A DNA stretch of 64,000 nt from the NCBI GenBank assembly GCA_031288185.1, contig JAITRZ010000003.1, forward strand, positions 98 through 64,097. The letters are read 5' to 3'. Shown here piece by piece: positions 1 through 62,765 of this stretch. Both the position numbers and the translations under genes were made by a program. The DNA is from Coriobacteriales bacterium. GTDB taxonomy: Bacteria; Actinomycetota; Coriobacteriia; Coriobacteriales; UBA8131. A model generated the notes under the pieces. It ran no database searches. It was not told the origin of the DNA and saw only the letters and a program-made list of their open reading frames with translations. The stretch's first letter is position 1; every line of letters starts with the position of its first letter.

Positions 1-297
1 CAATCAACTCTACTAGCGTAAACCCCTTTCTATTCCCCCCTTGCAGTTGCTGCTTTCTTGCTTGAATCATACTTTCCATAACCGTTCCTTTCCCTTGCGC
101 GCGGAATCCGTCTGTGTCTGCCCAAACAAAGCAGTCCCTGTGTCCTGAAAACCACTCAGGGGCACAGCGCGCTTTTGGCGGCATTAACTCAAATAGCTTC
201 ACGGATCAGCCAGCCGATTTACGCGTGGCAGACAAACTTCATAACAAGAGACAATATACCAAACTTTTTTGCTGGTGTGAGCGGGAAATTCAAAAAA

Positions 298-341
298 GCC
301 CTTCACCAGCCCTTCACCAGCCCTTTACCAGCACTTCACCG
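298..341. repeat. 11-bp tandem repeat x4 (gcccttcacca / gcccttcacca / gccctttacca / gcacttcaccg)
   Basis: Read directly from the sequence, in the non-coding region 3' of the GT2 gene. Confidence 0.8.
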
Positions 342-442
342 CCTCAATCTCTCCATTCGCACCCAGTTACAGGAGCGCTTCGCTTATGCCCAGAGGGCGT
401 GAGGCCGGCGGTGTATGGCTGGCGTGTCTGTGGTGCCGCTCC

Positions 443-1543
443 TCAGTTAAACTTGAATAATCGTCGCGCCAATCGGTAGCCGCCCTTGATGGTGGCCTGG
501 CCGGCAGGACTGCTCATGTTAACGGTACGGCCCAAAAAACCACGACGGAGGCGCCGGTACATGCGAGGACTGCGCAAAAACAGGTACAGCCAGATGGCCT
601 CACGTTGCTTGAGGGCGTCGGGACGTCCTGACAGCAGCAAAAATACCGAGCAGATAATCAGCATCATCCGCAGATAATTACTCATGTAGCGCCGCAGGGC
701 CGGTTGGGGTACGTCGGTGTCCAGGTCATAGGCATCTATCATAATGCGCGTAATGCGCAGCTGCTGATCAATGCGCTCTGCCATAACCTTTTCATTAACT
801 GATTGACCCTCACGGCCAATGAAGTAGCGGTAAAAGTCAACGTTCATATAGTAGAGTGAGCGCACATGCGGCAGGGGCAGATACACAAAGATGTTGTCTA
901 CATAAAAGGTGTGTGCCGGCAGCGTTAACCCCATGTCTCTTAGCAGGTCACGCCGAAAGATAACCGAGTGCATCAGGATGTTTTGAGAGACCATGAAGCG
1001 GCCCACGTCACCCCAGGAAAACTGGCGACCAGACGGCAGGGCGCTGCCGTAGCTGATGGTTTGGCGCTTACCCTCAAAGACCTTTTCATAGACGTAGTTT
1101 GTGATAACCAGATCGATGGGAGCATGGCTGACAGCAAACTGATCCAGCTTAATCATGACCTGATGGGTGGCCTCCCTATCCAGCCAATCATCGGCGTCCA
1201 CAACCTTGAAGTAGATGCCGCGAGCCAGCGCCAGACCGGTGTTGACCGCCTGACCATGGCCGCCGTTGGCCTGATGCACGGCCCGGATAAGACCGGGCCA
1301 GGCGGTCTGCCAATTGTCAACTTTGGCGGCCGTAGCGTCTTTGTGTGAGCCGTCGTCAATCAAGATTATCTCTATGCGATCCAGGTAACGAGAACAACCG
1401 TCCAGGATAGAACGCACACAGTTATCAAGGTAGGGTTCCACGTTATAACAGGGCACGGCAAAACTTATCAGCGGCTGGCGCTGACCAAAGGCGACGGCGG
1501 TCACCTGGCTCTCACCCCCTGAGAGGGGCGCGGTCATGTCCAT
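443..1543 (-). CDS. Glycosyltransferase family 2
   Basis: 366-aa ORF. N-terminal 'ISFAVPCYNVEPYLDNCVRSILDG...IEIILIDDGSHKD' and 'KVVDADDW' are typical GT2 (GT-A fold) signatures. The ORF abuts the glf stop. Confidence 0.85.
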   Translation of the reverse strand: MDMTAPLSGGESQVTAVAFGQRQPLISFAVPCYNVEPYLDNCVRSILDGCSRYLDRIEIILIDDGSHKDATAAKVDNWQTAWPGLIRAVHQANGGHGQAVNTGLALARGIYFKVVDADDWLDREATHQVMIKLDQFAVSHAPIDLVITNYVYEKVFEGKRQTISYGSALPSGRQFSWGDVGRFMVSQNILMHSVIFRRDLLRDMGLTLPAHTFYVDNIFVYLPLPHVRSLYYMNVDFYRYFIGREGQSVNEKVMAERIDQQLRITRIMIDAYDLDTDVPQPALRRYMSNYLRMMLIICSVFLLLSGRPDALKQREAIWLYLFLRSPRMYRRLRRGFLGRTVNMSSPAGQATIKGGYRLARRLFKFN

Positions 1544-3186
1544 TACTTGCCTTTCTCTTTAGCACAGAGCCGGTCTGCCAATGTCAGGGCCCTTTCAACT
1601 ATTTGATCCATGTTGTAATAGCGATATTCAGCCAGCCGTCCCAGGGCAAAAAAGCCCGGCAGTGAGTTAAACAGGGCCAGGTAGCGGCGATACGCCGCCT
1701 CATTTTTGCTGCTAGAAATAGCATAATAGGGTATCTGTCCGGGCTGGTCGGTAAAGGCCAGCGGATATTCTTCCATCAGCGTTGTGTGGTTAAGGTTCTG
1801 GCCGGTTAGCCAGGTAAACTCCGTAATACGTGTATAGTCTTCACTCACCGTGTAATTAACGGTACCACAGGGAAGCACACGCTTTTGCTCTACGGTTTTG
1901 TAGACAAAATCTAGGCTGCGATACGGCAGCAGCCCAAAGCGCTGCGCGGCCAGAACGTCAAGGGGTCCGGTATAGATAAGGGTTCCGGTAAAGGGCCGGT
2001 TACTCGCCAGGATGCGCGTAAAGGGCTGGTCTGAGGCAGGTGCCGTATCTGCCAAGGTGCCCTGGGCGCGGCCTGTCGGCCCACCGCTGTTGCGGCTCGT
2101 CAACATGTCGGTGTCCCCATCGCCAACCTGGGACACGCCTGCTGCTGCGCCGCCGCTGCGGGTAGCCTTTAAGGTGTGCGGCACCCTGACAGCCGGAAGG
2201 GCAGTTGCGTTTTTGTTATCGGCACCAGTGTTCGCCCCATCGTCTGCCGTTAGAAAACCCAGGATACTCCGGGCGTCTATCCCAGTAAAGACGCTGATAT
2301 TTGGATGCGCAAGCAGGTTTTCAAACAGGGGCGTGTAACCAGCCGCTGGCATTCCCTGGTAGTGATCAGTAAAGTAGCGGTTGTCGCGGCCGCTGAAAAC
2401 AGGCACGCGGGCGGTTACCGCCGGGTCTATTTCTTCAGGGCGCAGCCCCCACTGCTTTTGCGTGTAGTATAAAAAGACGTTGCGGTACACAAAGTCGGCC
2501 AGTCGCTCCAACAGGGGATCGGCGCTCTTGCGCAACTCAATGATAGGGATTTTGGTATCGGGACCAAAGACCTCAAGCAGGCGCGCGATGATACGCTGGG
2601 CCTCATCGGCGGCAAAGTGCAGCTCGATAGAGTTAAAGTTAAAGGGCACGGGCGTGTAGATGCCATGAATATCAGCCAATACCTGGTGGTGGTAGGTATA
2701 CCAGCCGGTATAGCGGCTGAGGTAGTCAAAGACGCGACGGCTGTTTGTGTGAAAGATGTGCGGCCCATAGCGATGCACCAACACTCCGCTGGCATCGTAC
2801 TCATCATAGGCGTTGCCGCCGATATGGTGGCGCTGCTCCAGGAGCGTCACGCGCCGCCCGCCGCGCTCAGCCAATTCGCGCGCCACCACCGCTCCGGCAA
2901 AACCCGCGCCCACAACGATGACGTCGGCAGCCTGCAGGGCCTGTGCCAAGGCGGCGGGGGAGGGGTCTGGCCTCACGGCGCTTAGGATGGAGCCCTGAGC
3001 GAGGACAGCGGGGGAGGAAGCGCTGTGTTTTTGGGGCGCAGGCCCCAGAACGTCCGGGCCGCAAACCTGGGTTAGAGGAGTGGGAACATTGCTGGCCGGT
3101 AGCCGTTGTTTATCTTGAGCTGTCGCCGCCTGGGCAGGAAACAGGTTGTGAGCCAGACGGGCATTGGTAGTGGCAGGAGTTGTCAA
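1543..3186 (-). CDS. glf: UDP-galactopyranose mutase with N-terminal extension and an internal low-complexity insert
   Basis: FAD dinucleotide motif 'VIVVGAGFAGAVVARELAERG', then 'LLEQRHHIGGNAYD...HRYGPHIFHT' and C-terminal 'GRLAEYRYYNMDQ', all characteristic of Glf. The maximal ORF (to 3381) overlaps pta on the other strand, so the true start is internal. Candidates are TTG at 3186 (AAAGG about 10 nt upstream) or GTG at 2976. The start is uncertain. Confidence 0.8.
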   Translation of the reverse strand: MTTPATTNARLAHNLFPAQAATAQDKQRLPASNVPTPLTQVCGPDVLGPAPQKHSASSPAVLAQGSILSAVRPDPSPAALAQALQAADVIVVGAGFAGAVVARELAERGGRRVTLLEQRHHIGGNAYDEYDASGVLVHRYGPHIFHTNSRRVFDYLSRYTGWYTYHHQVLADIHGIYTPVPFNFNSIELHFAADEAQRIIARLLEVFGPDTKIPIIELRKSADPLLERLADFVYRNVFLYYTQKQWGLRPEEIDPAVTARVPVFSGRDNRYFTDHYQGMPAAGYTPLFENLLAHPNISVFTGIDARSILGFLTADDGANTGADNKNATALPAVRVPHTLKATRSGGAAAGVSQVGDGDTDMLTSRNSGGPTGRAQGTLADTAPASDQPFTRILASNRPFTGTLIYTGPLDVLAAQRFGLLPYRSLDFVYKTVEQKRVLPCGTVNYTVSEDYTRITEFTWLTGQNLNHTTLMEEYPLAFTDQPGQIPYYAISSSKNEAAYRRYLALFNSLPGFFALGRLAEYRYYNMDQIVERALTLADRLCAKEKGK

Positions 3187-3247
3187 GAGGACGTAACCTT
3201 TCTTAAAATATGGTACATTGTAACATCGTTTGATGAAAGGTGGGCTA

Positions 3248-4273
3248 ATGAGCGAGTTCTTATCCCGGATCATCGCCCGGGCAGCAGCCGACCGCCAGCG
3301 TCTGGTGCTACCGGAAGGCAGCGACCCGCGCGTGCTGGCGGCGGCGCGGCGCATCACTGATCTGGGCATCGCCGAGGTCACCGTATTGATACGTGAGGCG
3401 GATGCGGCGGCGAGTGGCTATGATTTTGACGGCATCAACCTGATTGATCCTACAAACAGTCCTCACAACGCTGACTTTGCCGCTTATCTCTACGCGTTGC
3501 GCCAAAATAAGGGCCTTAGCCAGGCTGAAGCTGCGGCTTTGGTTGGTGATGAACTCTATCACGGGGTATTGATGGTGGCAGAGGGCAGGGTGGACGGCAT
3601 GGTCGCCGGCGCGGCTCATGCCACCAGCGCGGTGTTGCGTCCCAGCTTGCAGATACTTAAGACGGCCCCTGGCGTTAAGCTGGTCTCAGCATTTTTTGTG
3701 ATAGTAGTGCCGGATCGGCACTTGGGCAAAGATGGGGCCTTTCTCTTTGCTGACTCTGGCCTGGTGCAGCACCCCGACGCTCAGGAACTAAGCGAGATTG
3801 CCCTGAGCTCCGCCGCCTCTTTTGCCAACCTGCTTGAGGCTGAGCCTGTGGTAGCCCTCCTGTCACATTCTACTAAAGGTTCGGCCACCAGCCCGGCTGT
3901 GGATAGGGTGGTTGAGGCTACGGCCCTGGCCCGTCAGAAAGCGCCACAGCTGGCTTTGGATGGCGAATTGCAGCTGGATGCGGCCCTGGTGCCAAAGATT
4001 GGAGCAGCCAAGGCTCCCGGCTCGACGGTGGCCGGCCGAGCCAATGTCCTGATCTTTCCTGACCTGGACTCAGGCAACATCGCTTATAAGTTGGCTCAGC
4101 GCGTGGCGGGTGCCGATGCCTACGGACCGATAACCCAGGGTCTGTCCAAGCCGGTTAACGACCTGTCCCGTGGTGCCAGCGTTGAGGACATCGTGGGTGT
4201 AGCGGCCATTACCTGCGTACAGGCCCAGGAACAAAATCTCAAACGGGAATTGGTGGGGAGATGTGAAACATGA
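3248..4273 (+). CDS. pta: Phosphate acetyltransferase
   Basis: '[30 protein letters not shown]' start, and '[21 protein letters not shown]...[19 protein letters not shown]', typical of the Pta (PTA_PTB) family. AAAGGTGGG RBS lies before the ATG at 3248. Confidence 0.9.
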
Positions 4274-5943
4274 CAGACACACCTGTAACCTCGCGCGCCA
4301 GGCTGCTTGCGGGTAAGGTATCGGCGGCCATTTTTCAGATGAACGCCTCGCGCGCCAGGCTGCTGATTGCCATTTTTTTGATTATTGTGGTTGCCGGCGT
4401 AATTACCGCCTTGGTGCTGCAGGCCGCCGGGTATCGACCGAAAAAAGAATTTACCCTTTATAAAAGCAATTTTTCCCCCACTGTGCTGCTGATAAACACG
4501 CGTCAAGGCGTGTATGCTGACCAAGATTACTATGTGGCCACCTCTGCCGATCTGGGCGCGCCGGAAAATGGTCAGGTGCTCATCAATCCCATCCGACAAC
4601 TGCCTGATGAACAGCGGACACCGCAGCTTGAGGCAGCTGCTTATAGTGTTACCAAAACGAGCGGACAGCCCCTTAAGCTGCGGCTGAGTAACTCGGCGCG
4701 GAGCGAGGTGCGCGCCGGCCAAAGCCCAGAAGTTGCCTACCTGGGCATTGCGTTGAACAACAGCTTCAGGGCCAGCTCGCAGCCGGCACTGCTCTACAAC
4801 AATAATTCAGAGGATGAATCAGTAGACAGCGCCCTACTTTTTGGCTCGGCCACGGGGAGTGCGCCCACCAACTGGAGCGCCGGCACCTCACTGTATATCT
4901 TAGATGGGGTGACAACCAATCACGCAGCGGCTCTGCTTCCCGGCCTCAACATCACGCAGGACACCCAGACCGGTGGTGCCGTTGCGGGTGTTATCTATTC
5001 TACTCGCTCCTTGGCCATTGGCAGCATTCCCAGCCCAGAACAGGACGCTGAGGCTGATGCCACGCTTACCCGGCTTTTGGCCCGTCCTAACCTGCCAACT
5101 GATGATGCGGTGGCCCAGGTGGGAGTGAGTGACCTGGATGTGATGGGGGCCCTCGCCATGAACACCGATCTCAGTATCATGAATACTGACATCCTGCTGG
5201 TGGCACCGCCGGGCAAACAAACCGTCTCTGTCTTTCGTTCGCCCGCCGCCTCACTGGGTGCAACCGCTGGCAACAGCCTGAGCATCGAGGGTGGCGTTAT
5301 TGCCGTGGGCGAGAGGTGCAGCTTAAGCATAGAGACTGACGCAGCCGGTCTAGGCAGTGTGTATCTGTCTCCCCGTGCACTGATTGTTGACGGCGGTGAG
5401 CTGAGTCTTACTTCTGCCAGCCAGGGCGCGGTTGTTATCAACAGCGACATCCAGGTGCGCAATGGTGGCCGCTTGCGGATTGGAGAAAACGTTACCATTA
5501 AAGGCAATATCTACGCCTTTGGCGGTGGACTTGTTGAGATTGCCGGCAGCTTCAGACTGGAGGGACGAAGTGTAAGCCTAGATGCCGCCTCTGTGCCGGG
5601 TGGCATTTTCATCCTGGCCAACAACAGCTTTGACAGTGCCGGCAACAGCCTGGGCAATGGCTATTTCACCGCTAATCGATTCTATATGATAGAAGGCAGC
5701 GATGGCCAATCTGATATTGAGATTATCAAATCACACGCTGTACACTTTCTCAGCACTGTTGGTCCCTTTGGTTATGGGGGAATGTACCAGGACTATGCCT
5801 GCCTGGACTCAACCACGTCACGCCACCTCTGTGAACATTTTGGTCCTGTTGAAAATCTGACCGCTCCGGACATCTCCGTGCATTTTTCTGCTGATTTTGC
5901 CCAGATACTGGGTTTTATGCCTGCCTCGATCAATGACAGCTGA
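4270..5943 (+). CDS. Hypothetical membrane-anchored protein with beta-helix-like repeats
   Basis: 557-aa ORF whose ATG overlaps the pta stop (ATGA). One N-terminal hydrophobic helix ('[20 protein letters not shown]'). The C-terminal half is rich in short G/N/S-beta-strand repeats ('[52 protein letters not shown]'). No family was recognised. Confidence 0.55.
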
Positions 5944-5989
5944 GGGGTAAAGACCCAAAGGAGGCATCTGAGCACGGCACCGATAATGC

Positions 5990-6029
5990 GTCTTTTGGCA
6001 GATTTTCGACAGATAATCTGCCAAAAGAC
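5990..6029 (+). terminator. Perfect 15-bp stem / 10-nt loop hairpin without a U-tract
   Basis: gtcttttggcagatt (5990-6004) is the exact reverse complement of aatctgccaaaagac (6015-6029). It lies 47 nt after the stop of the 557-aa ORF and upstream of the pilC promoter. Confidence 0.4.
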
Positions 6030-6059
6030 ACCGATCAGAATTGAGCAGAATAAATCTGG

Positions 6060-6087
6060 TTGACCAATCTGCTTCCTTTGTTATAAT
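6060..6087 (+). promoter_or_regulatory. Sigma-70-type promoter for the pilus operon
   Basis: TTGACC (6060-6065), a 16-nt spacer, then TATAAT (6082-6087), about 63 nt upstream of the pilC ATG. Confidence 0.55.
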
Positions 6088-6150
6088 TAACTAAAACGCA
6101 CGTGACTTTAAGCCCCACCATCAAAGCGTAAACGTATTCTTAGGGTTGCT

Positions 6151-7338
6151 ATGCCACAGTACAAGTATCATGCCGTTACTCTAAACGGTAGCCAACAGAG
6201 TGGACGATTGGAGGCTGCCACCGAGACACAGCTTTCGCAGCTGTTGTTTCAGCGCGGCCTTTATCTGACAAGTAGCCGTCTGATGGAACGCTCCCGCCGC
6301 CAACGCAAAATCAAACTTGGCCGGATAGCCGATTTCTGCCGACAGCTTGCCGCGATGCTCAGTTCTGGCATTACCCTGATTAGGGCCATCCAGATAATTG
6401 AGGCGCGAGACGAGTTGGCCTTCACCAAAAAAATCTACGCCAACCTGGTTGAAGAATTGCGTCGCGGCTCAACCCTTTCAGAGTCGATGGCCAAGCAGGG
6501 CAAAGCCTTTCCTGAACTGTTGGTAAACATGATGCGGGCCGGCGAAAACAGCGGCGGTATTGACACAACCGCGCTTAAAATGGCTGAAACGTATGATAAG
6601 CAAAACAGGCTTAACTCCAAAATACGCTCAGCGATGATCTATCCCATCATCCTACTGGTTTTAATTGTTCTGGTTATTATTGTGATGTTTGCCTTTGTGG
6701 TGCCAACCTTTGGCGAGATGTTTCCTGAAGAGAGCGAATTGCCGTTGCCCACGGTTATCATGATGAGCATCAGCAATTTTTTGCTCAACTACTGGTATGT
6801 GCTTGCGGGGGGCGTTGTGGCACTGGCGTTTATTTTGACCACCGTTTTCAGGCGACCCAAGCCCAAGTGGTTTTGGCATCGCCTGAAGCTGCACTCGCCG
6901 GTATTTGGTAAACTTTTGCGCATCATTTATACGGCGCGTTTTGCTCGGACCCTGTCCTCGCTGTACACCAGTGGCATTCCTATGATCCAGGCTTTAACCA
7001 TTGGCCGCAGCACCATTGGCAACACGTATATTGAAGGTCAATTTGACACCGTTTTGACAGAACTGGGTAACGGACGCGCGCTTTCTGATGCGCTATCCAA
7101 TGTGGAGGGTTTTGACACAAAGCTGTATGCTACTGTTGCCATTGGTGAGGAAAGCGGTCGTTTGGAAATGATGCTCGACAGCGTAGCTGATCAATTTGAT
7201 TACGAGTCTGAGATAGCAACTCAGCGTTTGGTGAGCATCCTGGAACCCGTGATGATTGTTATCATGGCCGTTGTTGTCCTGTTGGTTATTATTTCGGTGT
7301 TGCTGCCGATATTTTCGATGTATTCAAGTCTTGGTTAG
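6151..7338 (+). CDS. pilC: Type IV pilus platform protein PilC (T2SS F family)
   Basis: 395 aa. Start 'YKYHAVTLNGSQQSGRLEAATETQL', duplicated T2SSF-type domains ('LSSGITLIRAIQI', 'LYTSGIPMIQALTI'), and three hydrophobic segments. Confidence 0.9.
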   Translation: MPQYKYHAVTLNGSQQSGRLEAATETQLSQLLFQRGLYLTSSRLMERSRRQRKIKLGRIADFCRQLAAMLSSGITLIRAIQIIEARDELAFTKKIYANLVEELRRGSTLSESMAKQGKAFPELLVNMMRAGENSGGIDTTALKMAETYDKQNRLNSKIRSAMIYPIILLVLIVLVIIVMFAFVVPTFGEMFPEESELPLPTVIMMSISNFLLNYWYVLAGGVVALAFILTTVFRRPKPKWFWHRLKLHSPVFGKLLRIIYTARFARTLSSLYTSGIPMIQALTIGRSTIGNTYIEGQFDTVLTELGNGRALSDALSNVEGFDTKLYATVAIGEESGRLEMMLDSVADQFDYESEIATQRLVSILEPVMIVIMAVVVLLVIISVLLPIFSMYSSLG

Positions 7339-7348
7339 GAGGAACGCT

Positions 7349-8293
7349 TTGGAGAGCACATTTTACTGCTCACCAGGTTCGCTGTGTTTGCTGAGTGGTT
7401 TGGCCACCCGGCAGCAGATACAGGTAGATGAAGTCAGGCAGGTTCCTTTGCCTGAAGGTGCGATGATAAATGGCATTATTACCGATGTCGATCTGATGGT
7501 GGACTTTTTGGATTCCGTCGCCAAGGAATACGCGCTTAAAAAGCAGGCTGCCGCCGCCAACCCCCTCCTTGCCCAGCGCTCGGTTATTGTTATTCAGGCA
7601 AGCAATATTGTCACCAAGATCATGGAAGTGCCGCCGCTTGATGAATTTCATGTGCGTCAGTTTATCCAGCGCGAGTTCACTCAGTATGCCGATACCTCTA
7701 CCGCCGAGCCAAGCGAGCTGTATGATTACACGGTCTTAAACCAGGTTGGCCCTGAAGGCGGGGTACAGGTGTTGGCAGCCAGTGCTTCCAGAGAGATGAT
7801 AGCGGATTATCGTCAAGCCTTTGCCTTAGCTGGCTATAAGGTTGAGCAAATTGGCATTGGCGTAGAATCCCTGATAAAATTGGTTGGCCTTATACCGGAT
7901 CTGGTAGGGAAAACCTATCTTCTGGTGCAGGTCGAAGCCACAAGGCAGATTGTCACGATGTTTTTGGACGGAACGTTCAGGCTCTCTAATGGCTACCGAC
8001 TCATCTCTGAGCCAGGAAGCGATGAATGGGTTGCCGAGGTGGGCCAGAACCTGGCTTCGGTGATACAGTTTAATCGCGCTCAACGCGGCCAGACTGAGCT
8101 GGGTTCTGCCCTTTTTGCGGGCATGACCCCCACCAACCTGGAAAAGTTGAAGTCACGTTTTGATTACTTGAACATCACCATTGCCAACTTCGACCTTTCT
8201 CACGTCATTAAAGTGTCAGCCAATATTACCGCTGAGACCCATTTTGATCCCGGCAATTTCCTGTTTAATTTGGGCGCTTTGATAAAACGCTAG
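7349..8293 (+). CDS. pilM: PilM-like actin-fold pilus assembly protein
   Basis: The frame continues from AGGAGG (7337-7342) to TTG at 7349. 'VPLPEGAMINGIITDVDLMVDFL' matches the PilM N-terminal pattern (PxPxGxIxxGxIxD). Size and position between pilC and pilN fit. Confidence 0.7.
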   Translation: MESTFYCSPGSLCLLSGLATRQQIQVDEVRQVPLPEGAMINGIITDVDLMVDFLDSVAKEYALKKQAAAANPLLAQRSVIVIQASNIVTKIMEVPPLDEFHVRQFIQREFTQYADTSTAEPSELYDYTVLNQVGPEGGVQVLAASASREMIADYRQAFALAGYKVEQIGIGVESLIKLVGLIPDLVGKTYLLVQVEATRQIVTMFLDGTFRLSNGYRLISEPGSDEWVAEVGQNLASVIQFNRAQRGQTELGSALFAGMTPTNLEKLKSRFDYLNITIANFDLSHVIKVSANITAETHFDPGNFLFNLGALIKR

Positions 8294-8327
8294 GTTCAGG
8301 AGACGAAGGCCGCATGAAGGAGCAGAG

Positions 8328-9095
8328 ATGGCAAAGCCGCTAAAACAGAAGAGCATCAACTTTTTGGCAGTCCTGGAGGGGCGTCAGGCTCGATCCGGCC
8401 CAAAACCCACAACCTTTATCTTTCCGGGCGTACTGCTTGCGGTCGTCTGTGTTGGCATCAGTGTTTTCGCCTTCTTTCATATACAGGTTTTGGACTTTGA
8501 GCATCAGTATGCCGCTCTCTCAGAGTATCTGAACTCTCCCACCACCACCAGCCAATTTGCTGAGGCTCAGACGCTACAGAGTCAGGCCGACGCGCTGCAG
8601 CGAGAGGCTGATGGTATGGCCACTCCCATAGAAAATTTGTTGAGCTATCCTGACCTGCTTAGTACCGATTACCGGGAGCTGATGGCTCTGGCGGGAGCTA
8701 ACATTACCGTTAGCAACGCCAGTTTCAATCATGCCGCCGGTACTCTGAACCTCACCTGCACCACAGAATACCTGCCAGCTATTGACACCTTTGTGTCCCA
8801 ACTGCGCAACGCCGCCTTCCTGAGCGACGTTGAGTACACGGGTTATACCGGCAGCTCTTCACCGTTGAGCACACCAACGGTTCGTTCCGGCTCCACAACC
8901 AGTGGGACAACTACCGGCAACACTTCCGCCGGTGGACAAACCACAAGCAGTACCTCTACCAGTGGGCAAGCCGCAAGCGGGCAGGCCAGTACCAGCTCCA
9001 CAGGATCCCGCTACCAGTTTTCTTTGACCTGCACGTTAAGGTCGCCAACAGGCGGCAACACCCCTGACTCTGGACAGCTGACGGGAGGTCAGTGA
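8328..9095 (+). CDS. pilN: PilN-like bitopic pilus alignment protein with Ser/Thr-rich tail
   Basis: Short cytoplasmic N-terminus with 'INFLAV' (compare the PilN INLLP motif), a single TM ('FIFPGVLLAVVCVGISVFAFF'), then an extracytoplasmic domain. The C-terminal roughly 80 aa are S/T/G-rich. Confidence 0.55.
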   Translation: MAKPLKQKSINFLAVLEGRQARSGPKPTTFIFPGVLLAVVCVGISVFAFFHIQVLDFEHQYAALSEYLNSPTTTSQFAEAQTLQSQADALQREADGMATPIENLLSYPDLLSTDYRELMALAGANITVSNASFNHAAGTLNLTCTTEYLPAIDTFVSQLRNAAFLSDVEYTGYTGSSSPLSTPTVRSGSTTSGTTTGNTSAGGQTTSSTSTSGQAASGQASTSSTGSRYQFSLTCTLRSPTGGNTPDSGQLTGGQ

Positions 9096-10864
9096 TGTTG
9101 TTGTTTTCTCTCTCTGATACAGGCGACTCAGGCGCTGGCGATTCTGCTTCGCCTTCGCCCTTCTCCCAACCGTCTGCGCCTGGCTCAGCCACGCCTGCTA
9201 GCTCGGCTGCCACTGGCGCTATCCCCGCGCCAACATCGGTGAGCCCGGCTGCCACCAGCGCGCAAACATCGGTGAGCCCGTCGCCTGCGCCCGTCAGTTC
9301 TTCTCAGGAGCCCGCGCCCCAATCAGCTACAGACACCCTCTCGTCGCTCCTGTCCGCCAGCGCTGCTGCAGGCACCGCTTCTCCGGCCGCATCCTCATCA
9401 ATATCCGCCAGCCCGGCTACCGGCGCATCAACATCCGCCAGCCCGGCTGCATCTGCTGCTGTTCCCGCTGGTGCCACTCCTGCACCAACATCCGCCAGCC
9501 CGGCTGCATCTGCTGCTGTTCCCGCTGGTGCCACTCCTGCACCAACATCCGCCGGCCCGGCTACCGGCGCATCAACATCCGCCAGTTCGCCGCCAACGCC
9601 TGCCGCTTCTTCTCAAGCATCCGCGTCCGCCTCAGGCATACCCGTCACTTCGTCATCTGCGCCTGCGCCCCGACTCGCCACAGATAGCAGTCCGGCACCG
9701 AGCCCTGCCATCCGTGACCTCCCCCTGCCTTCCCCTGCACCACCCCCTCCCTCTGGCTCTCCAACATCTCTACCGCCGCTCGTTTCCCCGGCGCCTCTTT
9801 CTGCCCCTGCCGCTTCTTTGTCATCCCCTCGCCCTGCTGCGAGTGCCATCCCTGCGCCCACTCCTCAAGCTGCTCGGCCAGCGGCCGCGCTGGCTGCTGT
9901 GCGTCCCGCCAGTATCAAGGGCCAAAATGGGGCCAAAAAGGATGCGAAGGCGCCAGGTGCCTCAGCCGCACCCAAACGCCCTAGGCGCAAGCTCCGCCTG
10001 CGCGAGAAGCTGCTTATCTTTGCCGTTATCCTGATTGCCCTTGTGATGGCCTTGGTCTTTCTGCTGATTATGCCCACCTATACCCAGCTGGTTGTTGTTG
10101 AGCAAGAGTACAGCGACCTAGCCTCTCAAAGACAAACAACTGACACTACCATCGCCACCATACCTGGCAATCAGGAGCGCATTGGACGTGAACAGCTGCG
10201 CTATAACGATTTTTTGCAGAAATACCAGGCACCCATGTTGCCGGAGGATCTGGACAGAATGGTTACTGTCCTTTTAGAGGATTGTGGTTTTCGAGTGTCG
10301 TCACTCACGCTGAGCCCCCTGGCTACTGAAACCGTGGACAGTCGGCAGATTCTTCAGCCCAGCTGGCAGGTTCCCACAGCGGCCGATCCTCTGGCACAGC
10401 AGGCAACGTCGCCTTTGGGGGGCACGTTGGCGGGCAGCAGCCAGGATGCAGCCACGATAGCCGGCCTTGAGCCATCCACCGAGGGCAGCGCGGATCAATC
10501 TCCTGAATATGCGGCGCAAGCTAGCACTTATTCCGCCGATAGCGCTGCCGCCAGCGCGAGCAGTGCTACCGTAAGCTCCGGCTCCGGGGCTTCGGTGATG
10601 CTGTATAACGTCAACGCCTCAGTACAGGGTTCAAATGATAACTTCTATATCTTGCTGGACAGGAAAGCCTCTTCACCCTGGATCTCCATTGGCGATTACA
10701 CTCTTGTACTAAGCGCGCCAGCAACCTCCTCTTCCGCCACCACTACCACCACTACCACCACTACCCCTTCTTCTAATGGCGATACGGGTAGGAGCGATTT
10801 GACAACCTTTAGCCTCCAGCTCAAGATCTATGTACACCCCCTGGCCACTCTCAAGACCCCCTGA
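9092..10864 (+). CDS. pilO: PilO-like protein with a roughly 300-aa Pro/Ala/Ser-rich N-terminal extension
   Basis: The start overlaps the pilN stop (GTGATG). A TM ('LLIFAVILIALVMALVFLLIM') is followed by a coiled-coil and '...MLPEDLDRMVTVLLEDCGFRVSSLTLSPL', a PilO-like core. The N-terminal 300 aa are low complexity. There is a poly-Thr run near the C-terminus. Confidence 0.55.
   Translation: MMLLFSLSDTGDSGAGDSASPSPFSQPSAPGSATPASSAATGAIPAPTSVSPAATSAQTSVSPSPAPVSSSQEPAPQSATDTLSSLLSASAAAGTASPAASSSISASPATGASTSASPAASAAVPAGATPAPTSASPAASAAVPAGATPAPTSAGPATGASTSASSPPTPAASSQASASASGIPVTSSSAPAPRLATDSSPAPSPAIRDLPLPSPAPPPPSGSPTSLPPLVSPAPLSAPAASLSSPRPAASAIPAPTPQAARPAAALAAVRPASIKGQNGAKKDAKAPGASAAPKRPRRKLRLREKLLIFAVILIALVMALVFLLIMPTYTQLVVVEQEYSDLASQRQTTDTTIATIPGNQERIGREQLRYNDFLQKYQAPMLPEDLDRMVTVLLEDCGFRVSSLTLSPLATETVDSRQILQPSWQVPTAADPLAQQATSPLGGTLAGSSQDAATIAGLEPSTEGSADQSPEYAAQASTYSADSAAASASSATVSSGSGASVMLYNVNASVQGSNDNFYILLDRKASSPWISIGDYTLVLSAPATSSSATTTTTTTTTPSSNGDTGRSDLTTFSLQLKIYVHPLATLKTP
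9431..9544. repeat. Perfect 57-bp tandem duplication (2 copies) inside the pilO-like gene
   Basis: 9431-9487 is identical to 9488-9544. Each copy encodes TSASPAASAAVPAGATPAP. A partial third copy follows. Confidence 0.9.
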
Positions 10865-10964
10865 GCGTTGTTATGCGGTGTGCGCTTACAAGAATGCGCC
10901 TGAACAGGGCGATGTGGCTGTGGCGCATGGGGCCGCGGCACGCGTCAGTTAGGAGACGGACGAC

Positions 10965-12662
10965 ATGATAGACCCCCGGCAGGTTCGGATCGGCGACCTA
11001 CTTAAAGAATATGGTTATGTCAATGATGACCAGATAACTCAGGCTCTGGTGTACCAGAAGCAGCATGACGTGCGTCTGGGCCAGGCGGTTATCGATCTGG
11101 GTTTTGTCTCTGAGAAGGAGTTTTTGCAGGCCCTGTCGCATAAGACCGGATATCCTCTGGTTAACATGGATAGAATTCCGGTTGATGCCACGGTGGTAGG
11201 AGAACTGCCGCGAGAGCTGGCTGAAAACGCCACGGCCATAGCCATCAGCGAAGAGCAGGGCACTGTGTTGGTGGTGACCAACGACCCCCTTAACATGTTT
11301 GCGCTCAATGAGATAGAGCAGGTGTTGGGTCGACCCATGCAGTTGGGAATCGCTGATCAGGCTTCTATCAAACAGGCCATCAAAAATTACTACACTGAGG
11401 TTGAGGCCATGGCGGCCATCGGCAAAATGCACATCGCCTCCGGAGTGCCGGTTTTGCCTGAAATCGAGGAAATCAGCAGTGTGGATCTGGGCGATGATAC
11501 CACGCCAGTTGTTAATCTGCTTAATTCACTGATGATTCGTTCCTATGCGGCGGGTGCCTCGGATCTGCACTTGGAGCCCTTTACCCAAACCTGCAAAGTG
11601 CGAATGCGTGTGGACGGCGCGCTTATCCACTACGCGGATATTCCCCGCAACGTCCATCCCGCGCTTATCGTGCGCCTAAAGATAATGAGCAACCTGGACA
11701 TTGCTGAAAAACGCCTGCCTCAGGACGGTCACTATCGAGTACTCCTGGAAGGAGTAGACTTAAATGTGCGCCTGTCCGTGATTCCAACGGTGCATGGTGA
11801 AAAGGCGGTCATGCGTTTTCTCACTACCAACACCACCATTGACCATGCCGAGCACTACGGCATGATTGATGAAGATTACGAGAAGTTTCAAACAATACTG
11901 GCCAACCCCAACGGCATCATCTACATCACTGGCCCCACCGGTTCTGGTAAGACCACCACCATGTACATGGCACTGGAACATTATCTGCAAAAACCGGTGA
12001 ACATCTCCTCCATTGAAGACCCAGTGGAGCGCACCATCGAGGGCATCAATCAGGTGCAGGTTAACCAGATGGCCGACATGACCTTTGACCGTGGCCTGCG
12101 TTCGTTGCTGCGCCAGGATCCTGACATCATCATGGTGGGCGAGACCCGTGACGCTGAAACCGCCTCCATTTCTGTAAGCGCGGCTATTACGGGCCACCTA
12201 GTACTCTCAACGCTGCACACAAACGACGCTCTTACCTCTATTGTGCGCCTGGAAGATATGGGTATACCCAATTACCTGGTGGGCAACTCACTGGTTGGGT
12301 TGGTGGCTCAGCGCCTGGTGCGCAAGGTTTGCGATAACTGCCGCGATGAGTACCTGCCCTCTGAGTTGGATCTGCTGAACCTGCGCGTCACCGCAGCAGA
12401 AGTTCCCCGCCTGGCCATTGGCCGTGGCTGCCACCTGTGCAATAACACCGGTTACAAAGGACGCACGGCCGTTCATGAAATTGTCCCAATTGATAAAAGA
12501 TTTCAACGGATGATTGCCGAGGGAAAGACCCTGTCAGAACTCTCTGACTATGCCCGCAAGCGGCTGGGGATGAAAACACTGCGCGAGCGAGCTCAGTTGC
12601 TTGTACTGGATGGTATAACTACGATGGAAGAGTTCATGCGTATCGGCGAAACGGTAGACTAA
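10965..12662 (+). CDS. pilB: Type IV pilus extension ATPase PilB (GspE family) with an MshEN-type N-domain
   Basis: 565 aa. Walker A 'GPTGSGKTTT', 'RQDPDIIMVGETRD', 'TGHLVLSTLHTN', and a C-terminal tetracysteine 'CDNC...CHLCNNTGYKGR'. The N-terminus carries two RLGxx..G..L..L..Q motifs. Confidence 0.92.
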   Translation: MIDPRQVRIGDLLKEYGYVNDDQITQALVYQKQHDVRLGQAVIDLGFVSEKEFLQALSHKTGYPLVNMDRIPVDATVVGELPRELAENATAIAISEEQGTVLVVTNDPLNMFALNEIEQVLGRPMQLGIADQASIKQAIKNYYTEVEAMAAIGKMHIASGVPVLPEIEEISSVDLGDDTTPVVNLLNSLMIRSYAAGASDLHLEPFTQTCKVRMRVDGALIHYADIPRNVHPALIVRLKIMSNLDIAEKRLPQDGHYRVLLEGVDLNVRLSVIPTVHGEKAVMRFLTTNTTIDHAEHYGMIDEDYEKFQTILANPNGIIYITGPTGSGKTTTMYMALEHYLQKPVNISSIEDPVERTIEGINQVQVNQMADMTFDRGLRSLLRQDPDIIMVGETRDAETASISVSAAITGHLVLSTLHTNDALTSIVRLEDMGIPNYLVGNSLVGLVAQRLVRKVCDNCRDEYLPSELDLLNLRVTAAEVPRLAIGRGCHLCNNTGYKGRTAVHEIVPIDKRFQRMIAEGKTLSELSDYARKRLGMKTLRERAQLLVLDGITTMEEFMRIGETVD

Positions 12663-12696
12663 CCGTTTGGCAGCCAGTACAACCGTTTGGCAGCCA
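12661..12696. repeat. 16-bp direct repeat x2 (aaccgtttggcagcca), 20-bp period
   Basis: Copies at 12661-12676 and 12681-12696, between the pilB stop and the pilT RBS. Confidence 0.85.
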
Positions 12697-12712
12697 CTAA
12701 AGGAGGAAGCGC

Positions 12713-13783
12713 ATGCCCGCTATCAGCATTGAACAACTGACCAACTATGGCCGCGAGCACGCCTGTTCAGACTTGCACATCACCGCTCAGCAGCCACCGA
12801 CCTATCGTTATCTGGGCAAACTTATCCAAGGTCCCTTTACCGGCAGTAAGCAGGATTATCATGACACCATCTTGTCGCTGCTTAATAACCGGCAGAAGGA
12901 GCTGCTGGGGATGGGTGAGGATCTGGACTTTTCCTTTGCGGATGCCCTTGGCAATCGTTACCGCGCAAACGTCTTTCGCGCCCAAAACGAACTGGCCTGC
13001 GCCATCCGCCTTTTGCGTGACGACATCCCCTCGCTGCCCGATCTAAAGCTGCCCCCCGTCATCCAGCAGCTGTGTGAGGAGCCACGGGGTATCATACTGG
13101 TAACCGGTCCCACCGGCTCAGGCAAATCAACCACGTTGGCGGCAATGATCGACTACATCAACACCAACCGTCGGCAGCATATTATCACGATAGAAGACCC
13201 CATTGAGTATGTGCATCAGCACAAAAACTGTCTGGTACATCAGCGCGAGTTGCATCGTGACGTTGGCTCCTTTGCCGATGCCCTGCGCTCGGCCATGCGT
13301 GAAGATCCCGACGTTATCCTGGTGGGCGAGATGCGTGACTACGAGACCATTTCCGCTGCCGTAACTGCCGCTGAAACCGGGCACCTGGTGTTTTCTACCC
13401 TACATACTACCGGCGCCTCTCAAACTATCGACCGTATTGTTGACGTGTATCCGGCGCATTCCCAGGGCATGATTCGCTCCCAGCTATCCGGCGTGTTGCG
13501 GGCGGTTATTACCCAGACCCTGTTGCCCCTGGCAGACGACAGCGGGCGCATTGTGGCCACCGAGATACTGGTGGGTACCGATGCCGTGTTGGCCCAAATT
13601 CGTGAGGGCAAGTTCCATCAGTTGACCTCGGCGATGCAGGCTGGCGGTGCTCAGGGTATGCACACTCTTGCCGGCGATCTATCCGCGCTTGTTAAACAGC
13701 GCTTGATAACCCCGGAAGTGGCAGAAAATGCTGTGAGTGACAAGGCGGAGCTGGCGCAATACCTGGGGCTGTATGTGCAATAG
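12713..13783 (+). CDS. pilT: Type IV pilus retraction ATPase PilT
   Basis: 356 aa. 'ACSDLHITAQQPPTYR', Walker A 'GPTGSGKSTT', 'REDPDVILVGEMRD', 'TGHLVFSTLHT' and 'EILVGTDAVLAQIREGK' fit the PilT family. Confidence 0.9.
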   Translation: MPAISIEQLTNYGREHACSDLHITAQQPPTYRYLGKLIQGPFTGSKQDYHDTILSLLNNRQKELLGMGEDLDFSFADALGNRYRANVFRAQNELACAIRLLRDDIPSLPDLKLPPVIQQLCEEPRGIILVTGPTGSGKSTTLAAMIDYINTNRRQHIITIEDPIEYVHQHKNCLVHQRELHRDVGSFADALRSAMREDPDVILVGEMRDYETISAAVTAAETGHLVFSTLHTTGASQTIDRIVDVYPAHSQGMIRSQLSGVLRAVITQTLLPLADDSGRIVATEILVGTDAVLAQIREGKFHQLTSAMQAGGAQGMHTLAGDLSALVKQRLITPEVAENAVSDKAELAQYLGLYVQ

Positions 13784-29985: not shown

Positions 29986-31086
29986 TTGGCGCTCTCCTCG
30001 CACAAACCGCGCAAGGTTCCTGGTGGCCTTGCGGCCCTTTTTCTCAGTCTGATAGCGGTGGTGCTGCTCTCGGTCTGGTCATATGAAGGCGGCAGCGCGC
30101 CCGGTTCCTCCGGTATCCTGCACAATTTGCGCTCTGCCACTTCCCTCCTTACTACACCACTGGATCATCTGGCTTCATTTATTGGTGCTCCTGGTAAGGC
30201 TGTGGGTAATGCCCTTACCAACCTGAGCGCTTCTTCTGAGAGTTTGTTGGAACTTCAAAACCAAAACGATGAGCTGGTGGCTACGGTAGCTCGCTTAGAA
30301 GAATATCGTTTGGAAAATGAGCGGCTTTCCAAACTGCTTGAACTGGCGGACGCCTACAGTCTGGAAGCCGTGGGCGCTCGTATCCTTAAGCCTGCCAGTG
30401 ATTCTTGGAACCAGTCATTAACCATCTCTAAGGGCGCTTCAGACGGCATCGCGGTGGGGATGCCAGTGATGAGCCCCAATGGCCTGATTGGACAGGTCGA
30501 GCAGACGGGCCCCTTTACATCGGTGGTGCGCCTGCTTACCGATCTTGATTCAGGAGTTGCGGTGTTTTTGCAGGCTAACCGCTCCGAGGGCGTTGTGAGT
30601 GGTTCTGTCGAGGGGTTGCTGTATCTGCGCTATATCTCCCTTGATGTAAATGTGGTACCGGGTGATGTTGTGGTGACATCTGGGGCCGGCGGCGTTTACC
30701 CCAAGGGTATTGTTGTTGGCGAGGTCACCTCGGCCAGCTATGCCCCCTCTGACGTGTATCAGACTGTCGTGGTTAAGCCGCTGGCCAGGGTTTCTCGCTA
30801 TGAGGAGATACTGGTGTTGACCGGCCGACAAACTGAGGTCATTCCCAAACAGGAAGCTGCCACCAATGACCTTGAGGCCGATGAAGGACATCAGTCTGGT
30901 GAAACCACGGAGGACGCGAAAGCCGCAGAAACAGAAACAACCGGCGTGGCGGAGACCACCACGGCTCCTGCGGCGACTGGGGTGTCTTTCGCCGCCAAGG
31001 CTTTCGCGCGGGCTTCTGCATTTGCGCAACGCGCAGTTGCGTCGCCCGTGCCGCCTGTCGCAGTGGCAGCCCGCATGAACGGTTAG
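29986..31086 (+). CDS. mreC: Rod shape-determining protein MreC
   Basis: N-terminal TM, a coiled coil ('LLELQNQNDELVATVARLEEYRLENERL'), and beta-barrel repeats ('GMPVMSPNGLIGQVEQ', 'VVTSGAGGVYPKGIVVGEV'). Positioned after mreB. Confidence 0.85.
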   Translation: MALSSHKPRKVPGGLAALFLSLIAVVLLSVWSYEGGSAPGSSGILHNLRSATSLLTTPLDHLASFIGAPGKAVGNALTNLSASSESLLELQNQNDELVATVARLEEYRLENERLSKLLELADAYSLEAVGARILKPASDSWNQSLTISKGASDGIAVGMPVMSPNGLIGQVEQTGPFTSVVRLLTDLDSGVAVFLQANRSEGVVSGSVEGLLYLRYISLDVNVVPGDVVVTSGAGGVYPKGIVVGEVTSASYAPSDVYQTVVVKPLARVSRYEEILVLTGRQTEVIPKQEAATNDLEADEGHQSGETTEDAKAAETETTGVAETTTAPAATGVSFAAKAFARASAFAQRAVASPVPPVAVAARMNG

Positions 31087-48917: not shown

Positions 48918-48921
<4 letters not shown>

Positions 48922-49679
48922 AGGAACAGGAACTGATGGGGGCTTTAGAGGCCCTGCTGTTTGTGTCCGATGAGCCGGTTAGCGCGGCGCAGTTGGCTCG
49001 TATCCTGGAGGTGGGTCCGGGCAAGGTGGATTCTGCCCTGGCCTTTTTGGCTACCCGATTTGCTGAAGAAGAACGCGGCATTCAGCTGAGGGAGGTCGCT
49101 GGTGGCTGGCGACTGTACAGTCATCCAGCCTACCACGAGCTGATTGAACACTACGTCGCCTCCTGGGATACCCGCGCCCTGTCCACGGCGGCTTTGGAGA
49201 CGTTGGCGGTGGTGGCCTACCACCAGCCGGTAACCCGCGCTGAAATCAACAGTATTCGCGGTGTCAACTCAGAAGGTGTTGTGCTGTCGTTGGTTGAAAA
49301 GGGGCTGTTGCGCGAGATGGGTCGCTCAGGCGCGCCGGGCAATGCCATTATCTACGGCACCAGTCGAGCCTTTTTAGAACGGTTTGGTCTGGCGAGCCTT
49401 AAGGATTTGCCACCACTGGCCGATTTTGCTCCCGACGCAGTCAGCCGCGACTACATTCGCCAACAGCTTATCGGTGGCGCTTCGGCTATCGATGCGGGCG
49501 AGAGTGGGCAAGATGACCTGACGGACGCTCGCTTGATTCTTGAGGCAGGCGACCTGGCGAACGTCCCTTCAGACTTTCCGGCAGATGAACTGGCGGATGT
49601 CCCGTTAGCTTCTCAGAAGGATAACGGGGCTTGTGAGCAGAAGGCTGCTAGCGCATCAGCACGTGATCTGTCGGTCTGA
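48918..49679 (+). CDS. scpB: Segregation and condensation protein B
   Basis: 'ALEALLFVSDEPVSAAQLARIL', 'GGWRLYS' and 'AALETLAVVAYHQPVTRAEINSIRGV' fit ScpB. Confidence 0.85.
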
Positions 49680-61316: not shown

Positions 61317-61473
61317 GCACAGCAGCTCGCCGCCAGCGAGATGCCCTGCCAAAGTTCCACCAAAATTGCCATCGTACGGATTGCTTCTTTGGCGCTTGCG
61401 ACAAGGGGGATGGGCACAGCACGCCTGAACGGTAAAACCGTGCTTCCAATCGACGCGTTGATGCCGTGTCGCA

Positions 61474-61502
61474 TTGGTTCTACGCGTTTATTCTGTTACA
61501 AT
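61474..61502 (+). promoter_or_regulatory. Candidate rpsB promoter
   Basis: TTGGTT (61474-61479), a 17-nt spacer, then TACAAT (61497-61502). This would give a 5' UTR of about 205 nt. Confidence 0.4.
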
Positions 61503-61712
61503 CAAACAACAACCCCCGGCGCAGGTCGCTTTTGCCGACAGGCGCATTGTTCCCATCAAGGAGGCGCAAGCCTCAATCACACATGTTCGCAGACTGCTTA
61601 TCGGCGGTGGCCGCTCAGGCGGTTACGAAGGCAGGTTGAAGCGGACAGAGGGAAGGCCGCTGGCTCCAGGTACGAGCAAGCGCGATCTTCAGACAACTGC
61701 AAAGGAGTAAGA

Positions 61713-62765
61713 ATGGCCACACGAGTTACCATTGCCTCACTGGTTGATGCCGGAGTGCATTTTGGGCACCAGACCCGACGCTGGAATCCCAAGATGAAGC
61801 CCTACATTTTTACGGCGCGCAAAGGCATTTACATCATCGACCTTAAACAGACCCTGGTTAGCCTTGACAAGGCCTATAGTTTTGTCAGCTCCCTCGCTGC
61901 CAAGGGGGGCGCTGTTTTGTTTGTTGGCACCAAGAAGCAAGCACAGGAACCAATTGCTGTCGCCGCTGAGCGCTGCGGAATGCCCTACGTCAATCATCGC
62001 TGGCTGGGTGGTACACTTACTAACTTTATCACTATCCGCTCCCGCGTGACCCACATGGAGGATTTAGAAGCCATGGAGGCTGACGGCCGGATGGCCGCCC
62101 TGCCCAAAAAGGAGCAGATTACGCTGCGCAAGGAACTAAGCAAGCTACAGGACAACCTAAACGGTGTTCGCGCCATGACGGCAGTTCCCCAGGCACTGTT
62201 TGTGGTTGACACCTTGCGCGAGGAAATCGCCATTCGCGAAGCCAAGCGTCTGCGGATTCCAGTAATTGCTATTCTTGATACCAATTCTGATCCCGACGAA
62301 ATAGAATTTGGCATTCCCGGCAATGATGATGCCATTCGTTCAGTAACGCTGCTTGCTGAGGTCATCACTGACGCCGTGGTGGCTGGAGCAAGCGCGGAGG
62401 TATTAAACGAGGCAGAGATGATCATCACCGAGGCAGCTCATCAAAAAAATGCGGCTGACGCTCAGGTAGGGGCGGATGACACGGGCGTTGCGGCAGATGA
62501 AGGAGAGCCCGGTGACGCGTGGGCGACCAGCGACCAAGGAGCCGCCGGGATGGCGCAGGACACGGAGCCCGGGCTACCGGCCATCACGCTTTCAACATCC
62601 TCAACGGAACAGGACATGGATCGAGAATCCCTGGCCCCTGTTGAGCCGGGTGTCATTGTTGAGTCCTCTGTTAAAACCGCCGCTGATGCCGCCTTAGATG
62701 TAGCTGCCGAGCATATCAGCCCCGCTGAGACCATTGCCGTCAGCACCGTGGAAGCCGAGGAATAA
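61713..62765 (+). CDS. rpsB: 30S ribosomal protein S2 with acidic C-terminal extension
   Basis: AAAGGAG RBS. '[33 protein letters not shown]' and '[32 protein letters not shown]'. About 100 extra acidic residues at the C-terminus. Confidence 0.95.

Follow-up and report, generated by a model that had tools for sequence, protein, structure and literature searches.

Type IVa pili (T4aP) have been noted in monoderm Firmicutes and Actinobacteria (Denise et al. 2019; PMC6668835), and in Streptococcus sanguinis a retractile type IV pilus (T4P) is reported to drive twitching (PMC4832360). In 2026, a pilT-pilB-pilA-pilC-pilD-pilMNO locus and twitching-like motility were reported for Bifidobacterium, covering 13 species (PMC13091076), and T4P-associated secretion has been proposed for a second T4P system of Clostridium perfringens (PMC11580942). 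Here we describe a pil locus from a termite-gut Coriobacteriales metagenome-assembled genome (MAG; locus tags LBU07_), contained in a stretch of 64 kb that was analysed as a whole and is referred to below as the window, with the operon under study at 6060-13783. The operon comprises pilC, pilM, pilN, pilO, pilB and pilT, and the 5' end of a major prepilin gene, pilA, lies at the left edge of the window. We consider it likely that the products of the locus make up the machinery, in the cytoplasmic membrane, of a T4aP of the Gram-positive type, which is monoderm and has no secretin. Gram-positive T4aP have already been described, and this locus is an ordinary further example of them and no new kind of system. 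A preliminary description of the same DNA, made from the sequence alone, had called the system poorly described, which overstates the case in view of the monoderm T4aP and the Bifidobacterium locus cited above (PMC6668835, PMC13091076); its assignment to an actinobacterial host agrees with the NCBI label, Coriobacteriales.

All six open reading frames (ORFs), at 6151-13783, share one orientation, as had been stated before, and all are full length and carry conserved motifs (Table 1). The sigma-70-type promoter proposed upstream of pilC was recovered as the only site of such quality in a scan that covered 15.2 kb, and a TATAAT-like -10 element is similarly placed upstream of pilC in two of the three relatives that we aligned (L012 and L091). 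pilC and pilM are separated by 10 nt, with an AGGAGG that spans the stop codon, and pilN and pilO overlap by 4 nt (GTGA), so that the earlier wording 'partly translationally coupled' is fair; the remaining gaps measure 34 nt (pilM/pilN), 100 nt (pilO/pilB) and 49 nt (pilB/pilT). The six machine genes would form one transcription unit that is read from the promoter-like site at 6060-6087.

The identities of PilC, PilB and PilT are unambiguous. PilC is aligned over its full length by the GspF and PilC models of NCBIfam and has a precomputed T2SSF_N match, in addition to the Pfam match given in Table 1 (Pfam was run on all window ORFs of at least 150 aa). PilB scored 503.9 bits with TIGR02538 over positions 2-561 of 564, which is under the equivalog cut-off of 675, and its best PDB matches were Thermus PilF and the PilB proteins of Geobacter and Myxococcus, with GspE ranking behind them. 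The MshE-type motif for binding of cyclic di-GMP (c-di-GMP), NF053729, was found in PilB with 56 bits, over its cut-off of 38. An MshEN-type c-di-GMP domain has been reported on clostridial PilB too. PilT exceeds the TIGR01420 cut-off, carries this name in the NCBI annotation as well and found the PilT proteins of Geobacter, Pseudomonas and Aquifex as its best PDB matches (E = 8e-96).

Table 1. Positions of the pil genes and of the other features discussed, in window numbering. TM, transmembrane.
Feature	Position	Strand	Description
pilC, inner-membrane platform	6151..7338	+	PF00482, two T2SSF stretches, 181.9 bits, E = 5e-54
pilM, actin-like cytoplasmic alignment protein (divergent)	7349..8293	+	314 aa; TTG start; exact NCBI protein LBU07_00165, 'hypothetical'
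pilN, predicted bitopic alignment protein	8328..9095	+	KSINFL N-terminal motif, TM helix, coiled coil, alpha/beta domain
pilO, predicted bitopic alignment protein	9092..10864	+	TM helix near residue 320, coiled coil, split ferredoxin-like domain
pilB, extension ATPase	10965..12662	+	PF00437 (T2SSE), 395 bits, E = 3e-118; MshEN, 54.7 bits, E = 1e-14
pilT, retraction ATPase	12713..13783	+	TIGR01420, 417.5 bits vs cut-off 319.1; NCBI name PilT
Promoter-like site, sigma-70 type	6060..6087	+	TTGACC-16-(TG)TATAAT, upstream TG, 11/12 positions
pilA, major prepilin, 5' end	1..79	-	First 26 codons, MESMIQARKQQLQGGNRKG/FTLVELI; gene runs off left window edge
Putative pilA promoter-like site	253..281	-	CTCACA-17-TATATT with TG; weak consensus
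Tandem repeat between GT2 stop and pilA promoter-like site	300..345	-	Three copies of GGGCTGGTGAA(G), then a T-run
glf	1543..3381	-	Low-complexity insert of ~80 residues relative to homologues
p557, membrane-anchored beta-rich protein	4339..5943	+	ORF opens at 4270; likely start M24 at 4339; 534-557 aa
Inverted repeat, 18 bp, between p557 and the promoter-like site	5990..6029	+	GTCTTTTGGCAGATTTTC / GATAATCTGCCAAAAGAC, near-perfect, 4-nt loop, no T-run
PilO N-terminal extension	9092..9990		~300 residues, Ala/Ser/Pro-rich
57-nt tandem repeat inside the PilO extension	9425..9562		2.4 copies, 97% identical
MreC	29986..31086	+	Long acidic/low-complexity C-terminal tail
ScpB	48918..49679	+	Long acidic/low-complexity C-terminal tail
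S2	61341..62765	+	Long acidic/low-complexity C-terminal tail

The preliminary description had suggested profile searches for all six proteins, and these gave strong matches for the platform and the two ATPases, whereas the three alignment proteins stayed under the curated cut-offs and are supported by indirect routes. The TTG start of pilM follows the genes called on a metagenomic contig of identical sequence; the ORF list gives 7256 instead, an artefact that arises because it uses the first available start codon, and this start was discarded. PilM matched TIGR01175 with E = 7e-13 (48 bits, cut-off 133) and PF11104 with E = 1.6e-5 (24.5 bits, cut-off 27), its three best PDB sequence matches were all PilM (E 0.18-0.35), and it is homologous to the N-terminal portion of PilMN fusion proteins of Lachnospiraceae. 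By sequence comparison, PilM is a divergent member of its family, and the homology is significant.

For PilN, searches of Pfam, NCBIfam and the PDB returned no direct profile match. An exhaustive phmmer search with its first 182 residues against 1.84 billion representatives yielded 214 homologues at E<=1e-3, and among 71 distant homologues 12 matched Pfam PilN (PF05137; best 1.8e-5), 3 matched GspL_C and 14 were fused to PilM, representing the C-terminal parts of PilM-PilN fusions. The N-terminal KxINFL motif (INFL/INLL) is kept across the PilN family; where PilM and PilN are fused, in Lachnospiraceae, it takes the form EINLLP, which is the canonical PilM-binding motif. The assignment of PilN is transitive, through these distant homologues, and the conserved motif and the topology point in the same direction.

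PilO and three orthologues gave faint GspM/T2SSM matches. An AlphaFold (AF2) model of PilO, built from an alignment of three sequences and of low confidence (predicted local distance difference test, pLDDT, 51.6), shows elements in the order alpha-beta-beta...beta-alpha-beta-beta besides a TM helix and a coiled coil. When this model, with its pLDDT of only 51.6, was compared with 350,542 PDB chains using Foldseek, the four best matches were all PilO (probabilities 0.99-0.33), namely 3jc8_Oa (probability 0.99, E 4.6e-3), chains A and B of 2rjz, and 5uvr. Alignment profiles of PilN and PilO produced only chance matches in the PDB, and a word-indexed search with the concatenated PilN and PilO profile recovered no more than 6 proteins, which is not enough to build deep alignments. 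We accept PilM, PilN and PilO as divergent homologues of the alignment proteins, the structural support for PilO being the weakest link. In public annotation, PilM, PilN and p557, the product of the gene directly upstream of the operon, are listed as 'hypothetical', and the JGI annotation calls PilO 'FtsL'.

The preliminary description saw no class III signal peptide anywhere in the window and concluded that the filament subunit would be encoded elsewhere or be non-canonical. Neither alternative holds: a six-frame motif scan detected the class III prepilin N-terminus NRKG/FTLVELI on the minus strand at 79..1, which identifies a canonical pilA in cis that is cut by the left edge of the window. 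The ATG of pilA, at 79, is preceded by a purine-rich ribosome-binding site (RBS), aagggaaaggaa, and the encoded N-terminus aligns in tblastn with the PilA proteins of relatives, which measure 151-155 aa at full length. In the window, some 6 kb separate the gene from pilC; in those syntenic relatives that are closest, it is the second gene upstream of pilC. Look-ups with window proteins recovered short Logan contigs only, none of which supplied the left flank, and one of these stops about 100 nt inside the edge of the window. Its upstream region, which contains a weak promoter-like site, is poorly conserved among relatives; a short tandem repeat followed by a T-run was also observed between this site and the GT2 stop (Table 1).

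That the window encodes no PilD-type peptidase, as claimed before, was borne out: neither Pfam, applied to the long ORFs, nor tblastn with the PilD proteins of three relatives detected an A24 prepilin peptidase in it. A search with the PilD of a relative returned 3,052 peptidases, among them P0101 (MDR3137023.1), a candidate of 295 aa with A24_N_bact (PF06750) and Peptidase_A24 (PF01478) domains. Its accession lies 1,178 numbers after that of p557 (MDR3135845.1), it derives from the same sequencing run as the window proteins (SRR14710895), and its DNA has 56.0% GC, compared with 55.9% for the window. The proximity of the accessions, the shared run and the GC content indicate that this PilD very probably comes from the same genome as the window. 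The gene (L095 10001-10888) lies amid housekeeping genes, with ispG and proS upstream and an M42 peptidase gene downstream, and is unlinked to pil genes within 10 kb upstream.

All relatives for which DNA across the locus was obtained (L003, L005, L011/L093, L012, L091 and L092) have pilC-M-N-O-B-T intact and in this order, with PilB 68-86% and PilT 73-88% identical to the window proteins. The closest relative, L091, shares 68% identity in PilC, 69% in PilM, 86% in PilB and 88% in PilT; for PilB, the values are 78-79% in the termite-type metagenome contigs L011/L093, L092 and L012, and 68% in L003 and L005, which are GTDB MAGs labelled Family XIII. In a Coriobacteriales MAG (L004) the contig ends inside pilM. 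L003-L006 carry near-identical system types under NCBI labels that read both 'Eubacteriales Family XIII' and 'Coriobacteriales', and either the classification of these termite-gut MAGs is inconsistent or there has been a transfer of the locus between Firmicutes and Actinomycetota. At a greater distance stand loci of Lachnospiraceae, in which pilins are encoded together with pilC, a fused pilMN, pilO and pilB; this places the system with monoderm T4aP of the Clostridia type. In two Lachnospiraceae MAGs (L008 143-6832 and L010 1463-7498), we also observed giant proteins of 2,011-2,229 aa encoded upstream of pilC, which have a class III prepilin N-terminus and appear to be modular pilin-like adhesins.

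In L011, L012, L013 and L092, the gene order is pta(-), glf, GT2, pilA, a p557 homologue (p55x), pilC and then pilM to pilT. The window instead reads pilA(-), GT2(-), glf(-), pta(+), p557(+) and pilC, indicating that the block pta-glf-GT2-pilA is inverted there. On the right, the inversion breaks off somewhere from the pta stop (4273) to the p557 start (4339), and its other breakpoint lies beyond the window; the inverted block has retained the start and RBS of pilA together with 364 nt of upstream DNA. L091 has no pilA beside p55x and shows another arrangement upstream of p55x, and recO follows pilT as it does in the window, suggesting that this layout has been maintained in a sub-clade. pilD and pilA stand beside pilC in L003, L004 and L006. 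Downstream of pilT, L092 and L093 encode three small N_methyl pilins and a protein of 585 aa; minor pilins follow pilT in L012 too, and in L091 an N_methyl gene follows recO. No minor pilins were detected in the 64-kb window by motif scan and tblastn. We also considered whether glf and GT2, always upstream of pilA in relatives, form a pilin-glycosylation module, and set this idea aside because dozens of gut contigs have a pta(-)-(glf)-GT2 backbone without any pil gene in its neighbourhood, so that glf and GT2 are not pilus-specific.

In the pilus that we propose, the prepilin PilA would undergo cleavage and methylation by PilD, very probably encoded elsewhere in the genome. PilC would form the platform and assemble in the membrane together with PilM, PilN and PilO, with PilM binding the cytoplasmic N-terminus of PilN at its INFL motif and PilN and PilO constituting a bitopic alignment complex. 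PilB would polymerise the fibre, probably upon activation by c-di-GMP via MshEN, and PilT would retract it, giving a dynamic fibre for adhesion and/or twitching. pilA would be expressed separately, because the inversion turned it away from the operon. The co-transcription of the six genes, the suggested response to c-di-GMP, the retraction and the biological role are extrapolated from what is known of these protein families, and S. sanguinis, C. perfringens and Bifidobacterium provide precedents.

Several observations weigh against this interpretation of the locus. PilA is visible for 26 residues only; the relatives carry minor pilins after pilT and the window does not; PilM, PilN and PilO all fall under every curated family cut-off, and the PilO model is of low confidence; the assignment of P0101 to this genome relies on accession proximity, sequencing run and GC and not on a shared assembly record; and the NCBIfam scores of PilB and PilC are marginally higher on the GspE and GspF models than on those for PilB and PilC. 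The last point, together with the secretion proposed for the second C. perfringens system (PMC11580942) and with recO immediately downstream of pilT, would fit a machine that mainly serves DNA uptake, as a competence pilus, or protein export by a piston resembling type II secretion. We think this unlikely, since the scores remained below the equivalog cut-offs for ComGA (249.6 vs 300 bits) and ComGB (155.3 vs 240) and also below those for GspE (513.7 vs 630) and GspF (335.5 vs 424), PilF and PilB rank ahead of GspE in the PDB, and PilT, PilM, PilN and a probable PilO, which ComG systems do not have, are present. Moreover, we saw no comEA or comEC, no GspC, GspD or GspL and no secretin among the window ORFs, and the adjacency of recO is housekeeping synteny. 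A Tad/Flp system is contradicted by TadA-family scores of 37-52 bits with TIGR03819 (cut-off 373) and by a platform that is a two-domain PilC. As regards T4aP, we found PilB, PilT, PilC, PilM, PilN (through the transitive link) and a class III pilin N-terminus (26 residues in the window), so that the earlier classification as a dynamic, T4aP-like system distinct from Tad/Flp and ComG stands; nothing of the kind that the preliminary description had named as overturning its assignment was found.

The inversion could also be taken as a sign of decay, in which pilA was split off, the locus gave up its minor pilins and pilD, and no pilus is built any more. pilA is indeed inverted and 6 kb away, the minor pilins and pilD that are adjacent in relatives are missing from the 64 kb, and PilO has gained an odd low-complexity extension of 300 residues. 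Nevertheless, a decaying remnant appears quite improbable to us, given that all six ORFs are full length, with PilC, PilM, PilB and PilT 68-88% identical to those of L091, that the near-consensus promoter has been kept, as have the pilA start, its RBS and the 364 nt upstream in the inverted block, that PilD is very probably encoded elsewhere in the genome, and that L091, the nearest relative, shares the layout without an adjacent pilA and with recO after pilT. The middle genes, finally, might encode unrelated small membrane proteins, and the locus would then be a type IV filament system of a generic sort whose alignment module is novel; none of the three products reached a curated cut-off, and the PDB profile search recovered neither PilN nor PilO. 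There is very little to recommend this possibility when the match of PilM to TIGR01175 (E = 7e-13) is set beside the homologues of PilN, which include Pfam PilN matches, GspL_C matches and PilM-PilN fusions, and the top Foldseek matches of the third protein, which are PilO; gene order, bitopic topology and the INFL/INLLP motif all fit the alignment proteins as well. We therefore retain the monoderm T4aP as the best explanation of the locus.

Directly upstream of the operon, p557 encodes a membrane-anchored, beta-rich protein. It is identical to the 'hypothetical protein' MDR3135845.1 (LBU07_00155), which is encoded on a contig of 74,430 nt and to which the accessions and locus tags of PilM, PilN and PilT are adjacent. 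The start annotated for p557 shares an ATGA with the pta stop, an overlap that is probably a by-product of the inversion junction. The family has nine members among 5.8 billion proteins, the five whose source is named all coming from Coriobacteriia or Coriobacteriales MAGs, and its gene sits between pilA and pilC in the four syntenic contigs described above. p557 has an N-terminal signal anchor and conserved C-terminal cysteines, and the AF2 model (pLDDT 67; predicted template-modelling score, pTM, 0.76) is rich in beta structure and resembles a beta-helix at 295-412. Neither the PDB nor Pfam gave a significant match for p557; weak matches are to generic beta-helix proteins, including tapirins, and a match to GspH (E = 0.046) covers the TM helix only. 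We rejected the idea that p557 is a giant or non-canonical pilin, as all nine N-termini of the family are basic-plus-hydrophobic signal anchors that lack both G-1 and E+5.

Its sequence and position make p557 a candidate pilus-associated surface protein. It could be an adhesin displayed by the pilus at the cell surface, or a cell-wall-spanning stand-in for functions of secretin-associated proteins of diderms. That it is a new accessory component of Coriobacteriia T4aP, which together with the PilN and PilO extensions would define a distinct Coriobacteriia-type variant, is conceivable, and we put it forward as a doubtful suggestion. The tapirins of Caldicellulosiruptor offer an analogy, and an analogy only, in that they are beta-helix surface proteins whose genes adjoin a T4P locus; the Foldseek match to the C-terminal domain 6n2b_B is weak and not significant (TMt 0.32, E 2.8), and p557, unlike tapirins, has an N-terminal membrane anchor and shares no sequence similarity with them.

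Low-complexity regions of PilN and PilO had been pointed out in the preliminary description, and both are present. In PilN, a Ser/Thr/Gly-rich insert stands ahead of the last strand, and the inserts of both proteins occupy the same loop positions in relatives. 'Unusual', as they had been called, suits the N-terminal extension of PilO, which is found in this genome only (the relatives' proteins measure 285-311 aa, and the JGI gene call gives a PilO of 321 aa). This extension is open in the pilO frame alone (0 stops, vs 2-11 in the other frames), contains a 57-nt tandem repeat and is predicted to be cytoplasmic, since it precedes the KRPRRK-TM segment. The epithet suits the remaining inserts less well: the long tails of S2, MreC and ScpB and the insert of Glf (Table 1) suggest that they reflect in part a genome-wide habit, and we have tempered the notion of a pilus-specific oddity accordingly.

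Between p557 and the promoter-like site lies a near-perfect inverted repeat, which was not found in the corresponding intergenic regions of relatives. It probably forms a hairpin that works as a terminator or insulator, and it could also serve as an operator. A search with Rfam for riboswitches in the pilA and pilC leaders, for c-di-GMP or other ligands, gave none at gathering score in the whole window and none at E<=1 in 1-6200.

The locus adds a well-resolved PilT-containing T4aP to the Coriobacteriia, a class in which the discussion of pili usually concerns Tad and sortase pili. A full-text literature search gave two papers in which type IV pili, Coriobacteria and PilT are all mentioned, and by title and abstract neither deals with this system, so that the Coriobacteriia example is little documented although the kind is known. 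For annotation, the analysis indicates that the PilM, PilN and PilO profiles miss divergent monoderm versions, and it flags p557 as a candidate pilus-associated protein. Provided that it is expressed, the pilus might help the cells to attach to lignocellulose particles, other microbes or the wall of the termite gut, and surface motility under the control of c-di-GMP would be possible.

Coriobacteriales are monoderm. In S. sanguinis, another monoderm, a single locus comprises all pil genes, including those for two major pilins and for minor pilins of modular build. The locus described here resembles the S. sanguinis system, a monoderm T4aP with PilB, PilC, PilM/N/O and PilT (PMC4832360). By component set it corresponds to the T4aP of Clostridia such as C. 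perfringens and C. difficile, whose loci hold pilA, pilB, pilC, pilD, pilM, pilN, pilO and pilT; the two have in common PilB, PilC, PilM, PilN, PilT, a class III pilin and the lack of a secretin, with PilO as a probable further member. The nearest relatives outside the termite-gut group are loci in Lachnospiraceae MAGs (PilC 40-45%, PilB 48-50%) with the order pilC-pilMN-pilO-pilB, in which PilM and PilN are fused; in the window they are separate. In contrast to loci of the Clostridia type, pilT here lies within the operon, pilD and minor pilins are not adjacent, p557 stands beside pilC, and the host is labelled Actinomycetota (Coriobacteriales). The Bifidobacterium locus is alike in having an Actinomycetota host and a PilT-containing T4aP-like system that exists alongside better-known Tad pili (PMC13091076). 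Compared by gene order, its pilB-pilT are divergent from pilA...pilC-pilD-pilMNO, and the window differs from it in belonging to the class Coriobacteriia and in having pilD and minor pilins unlinked from the other pil genes.

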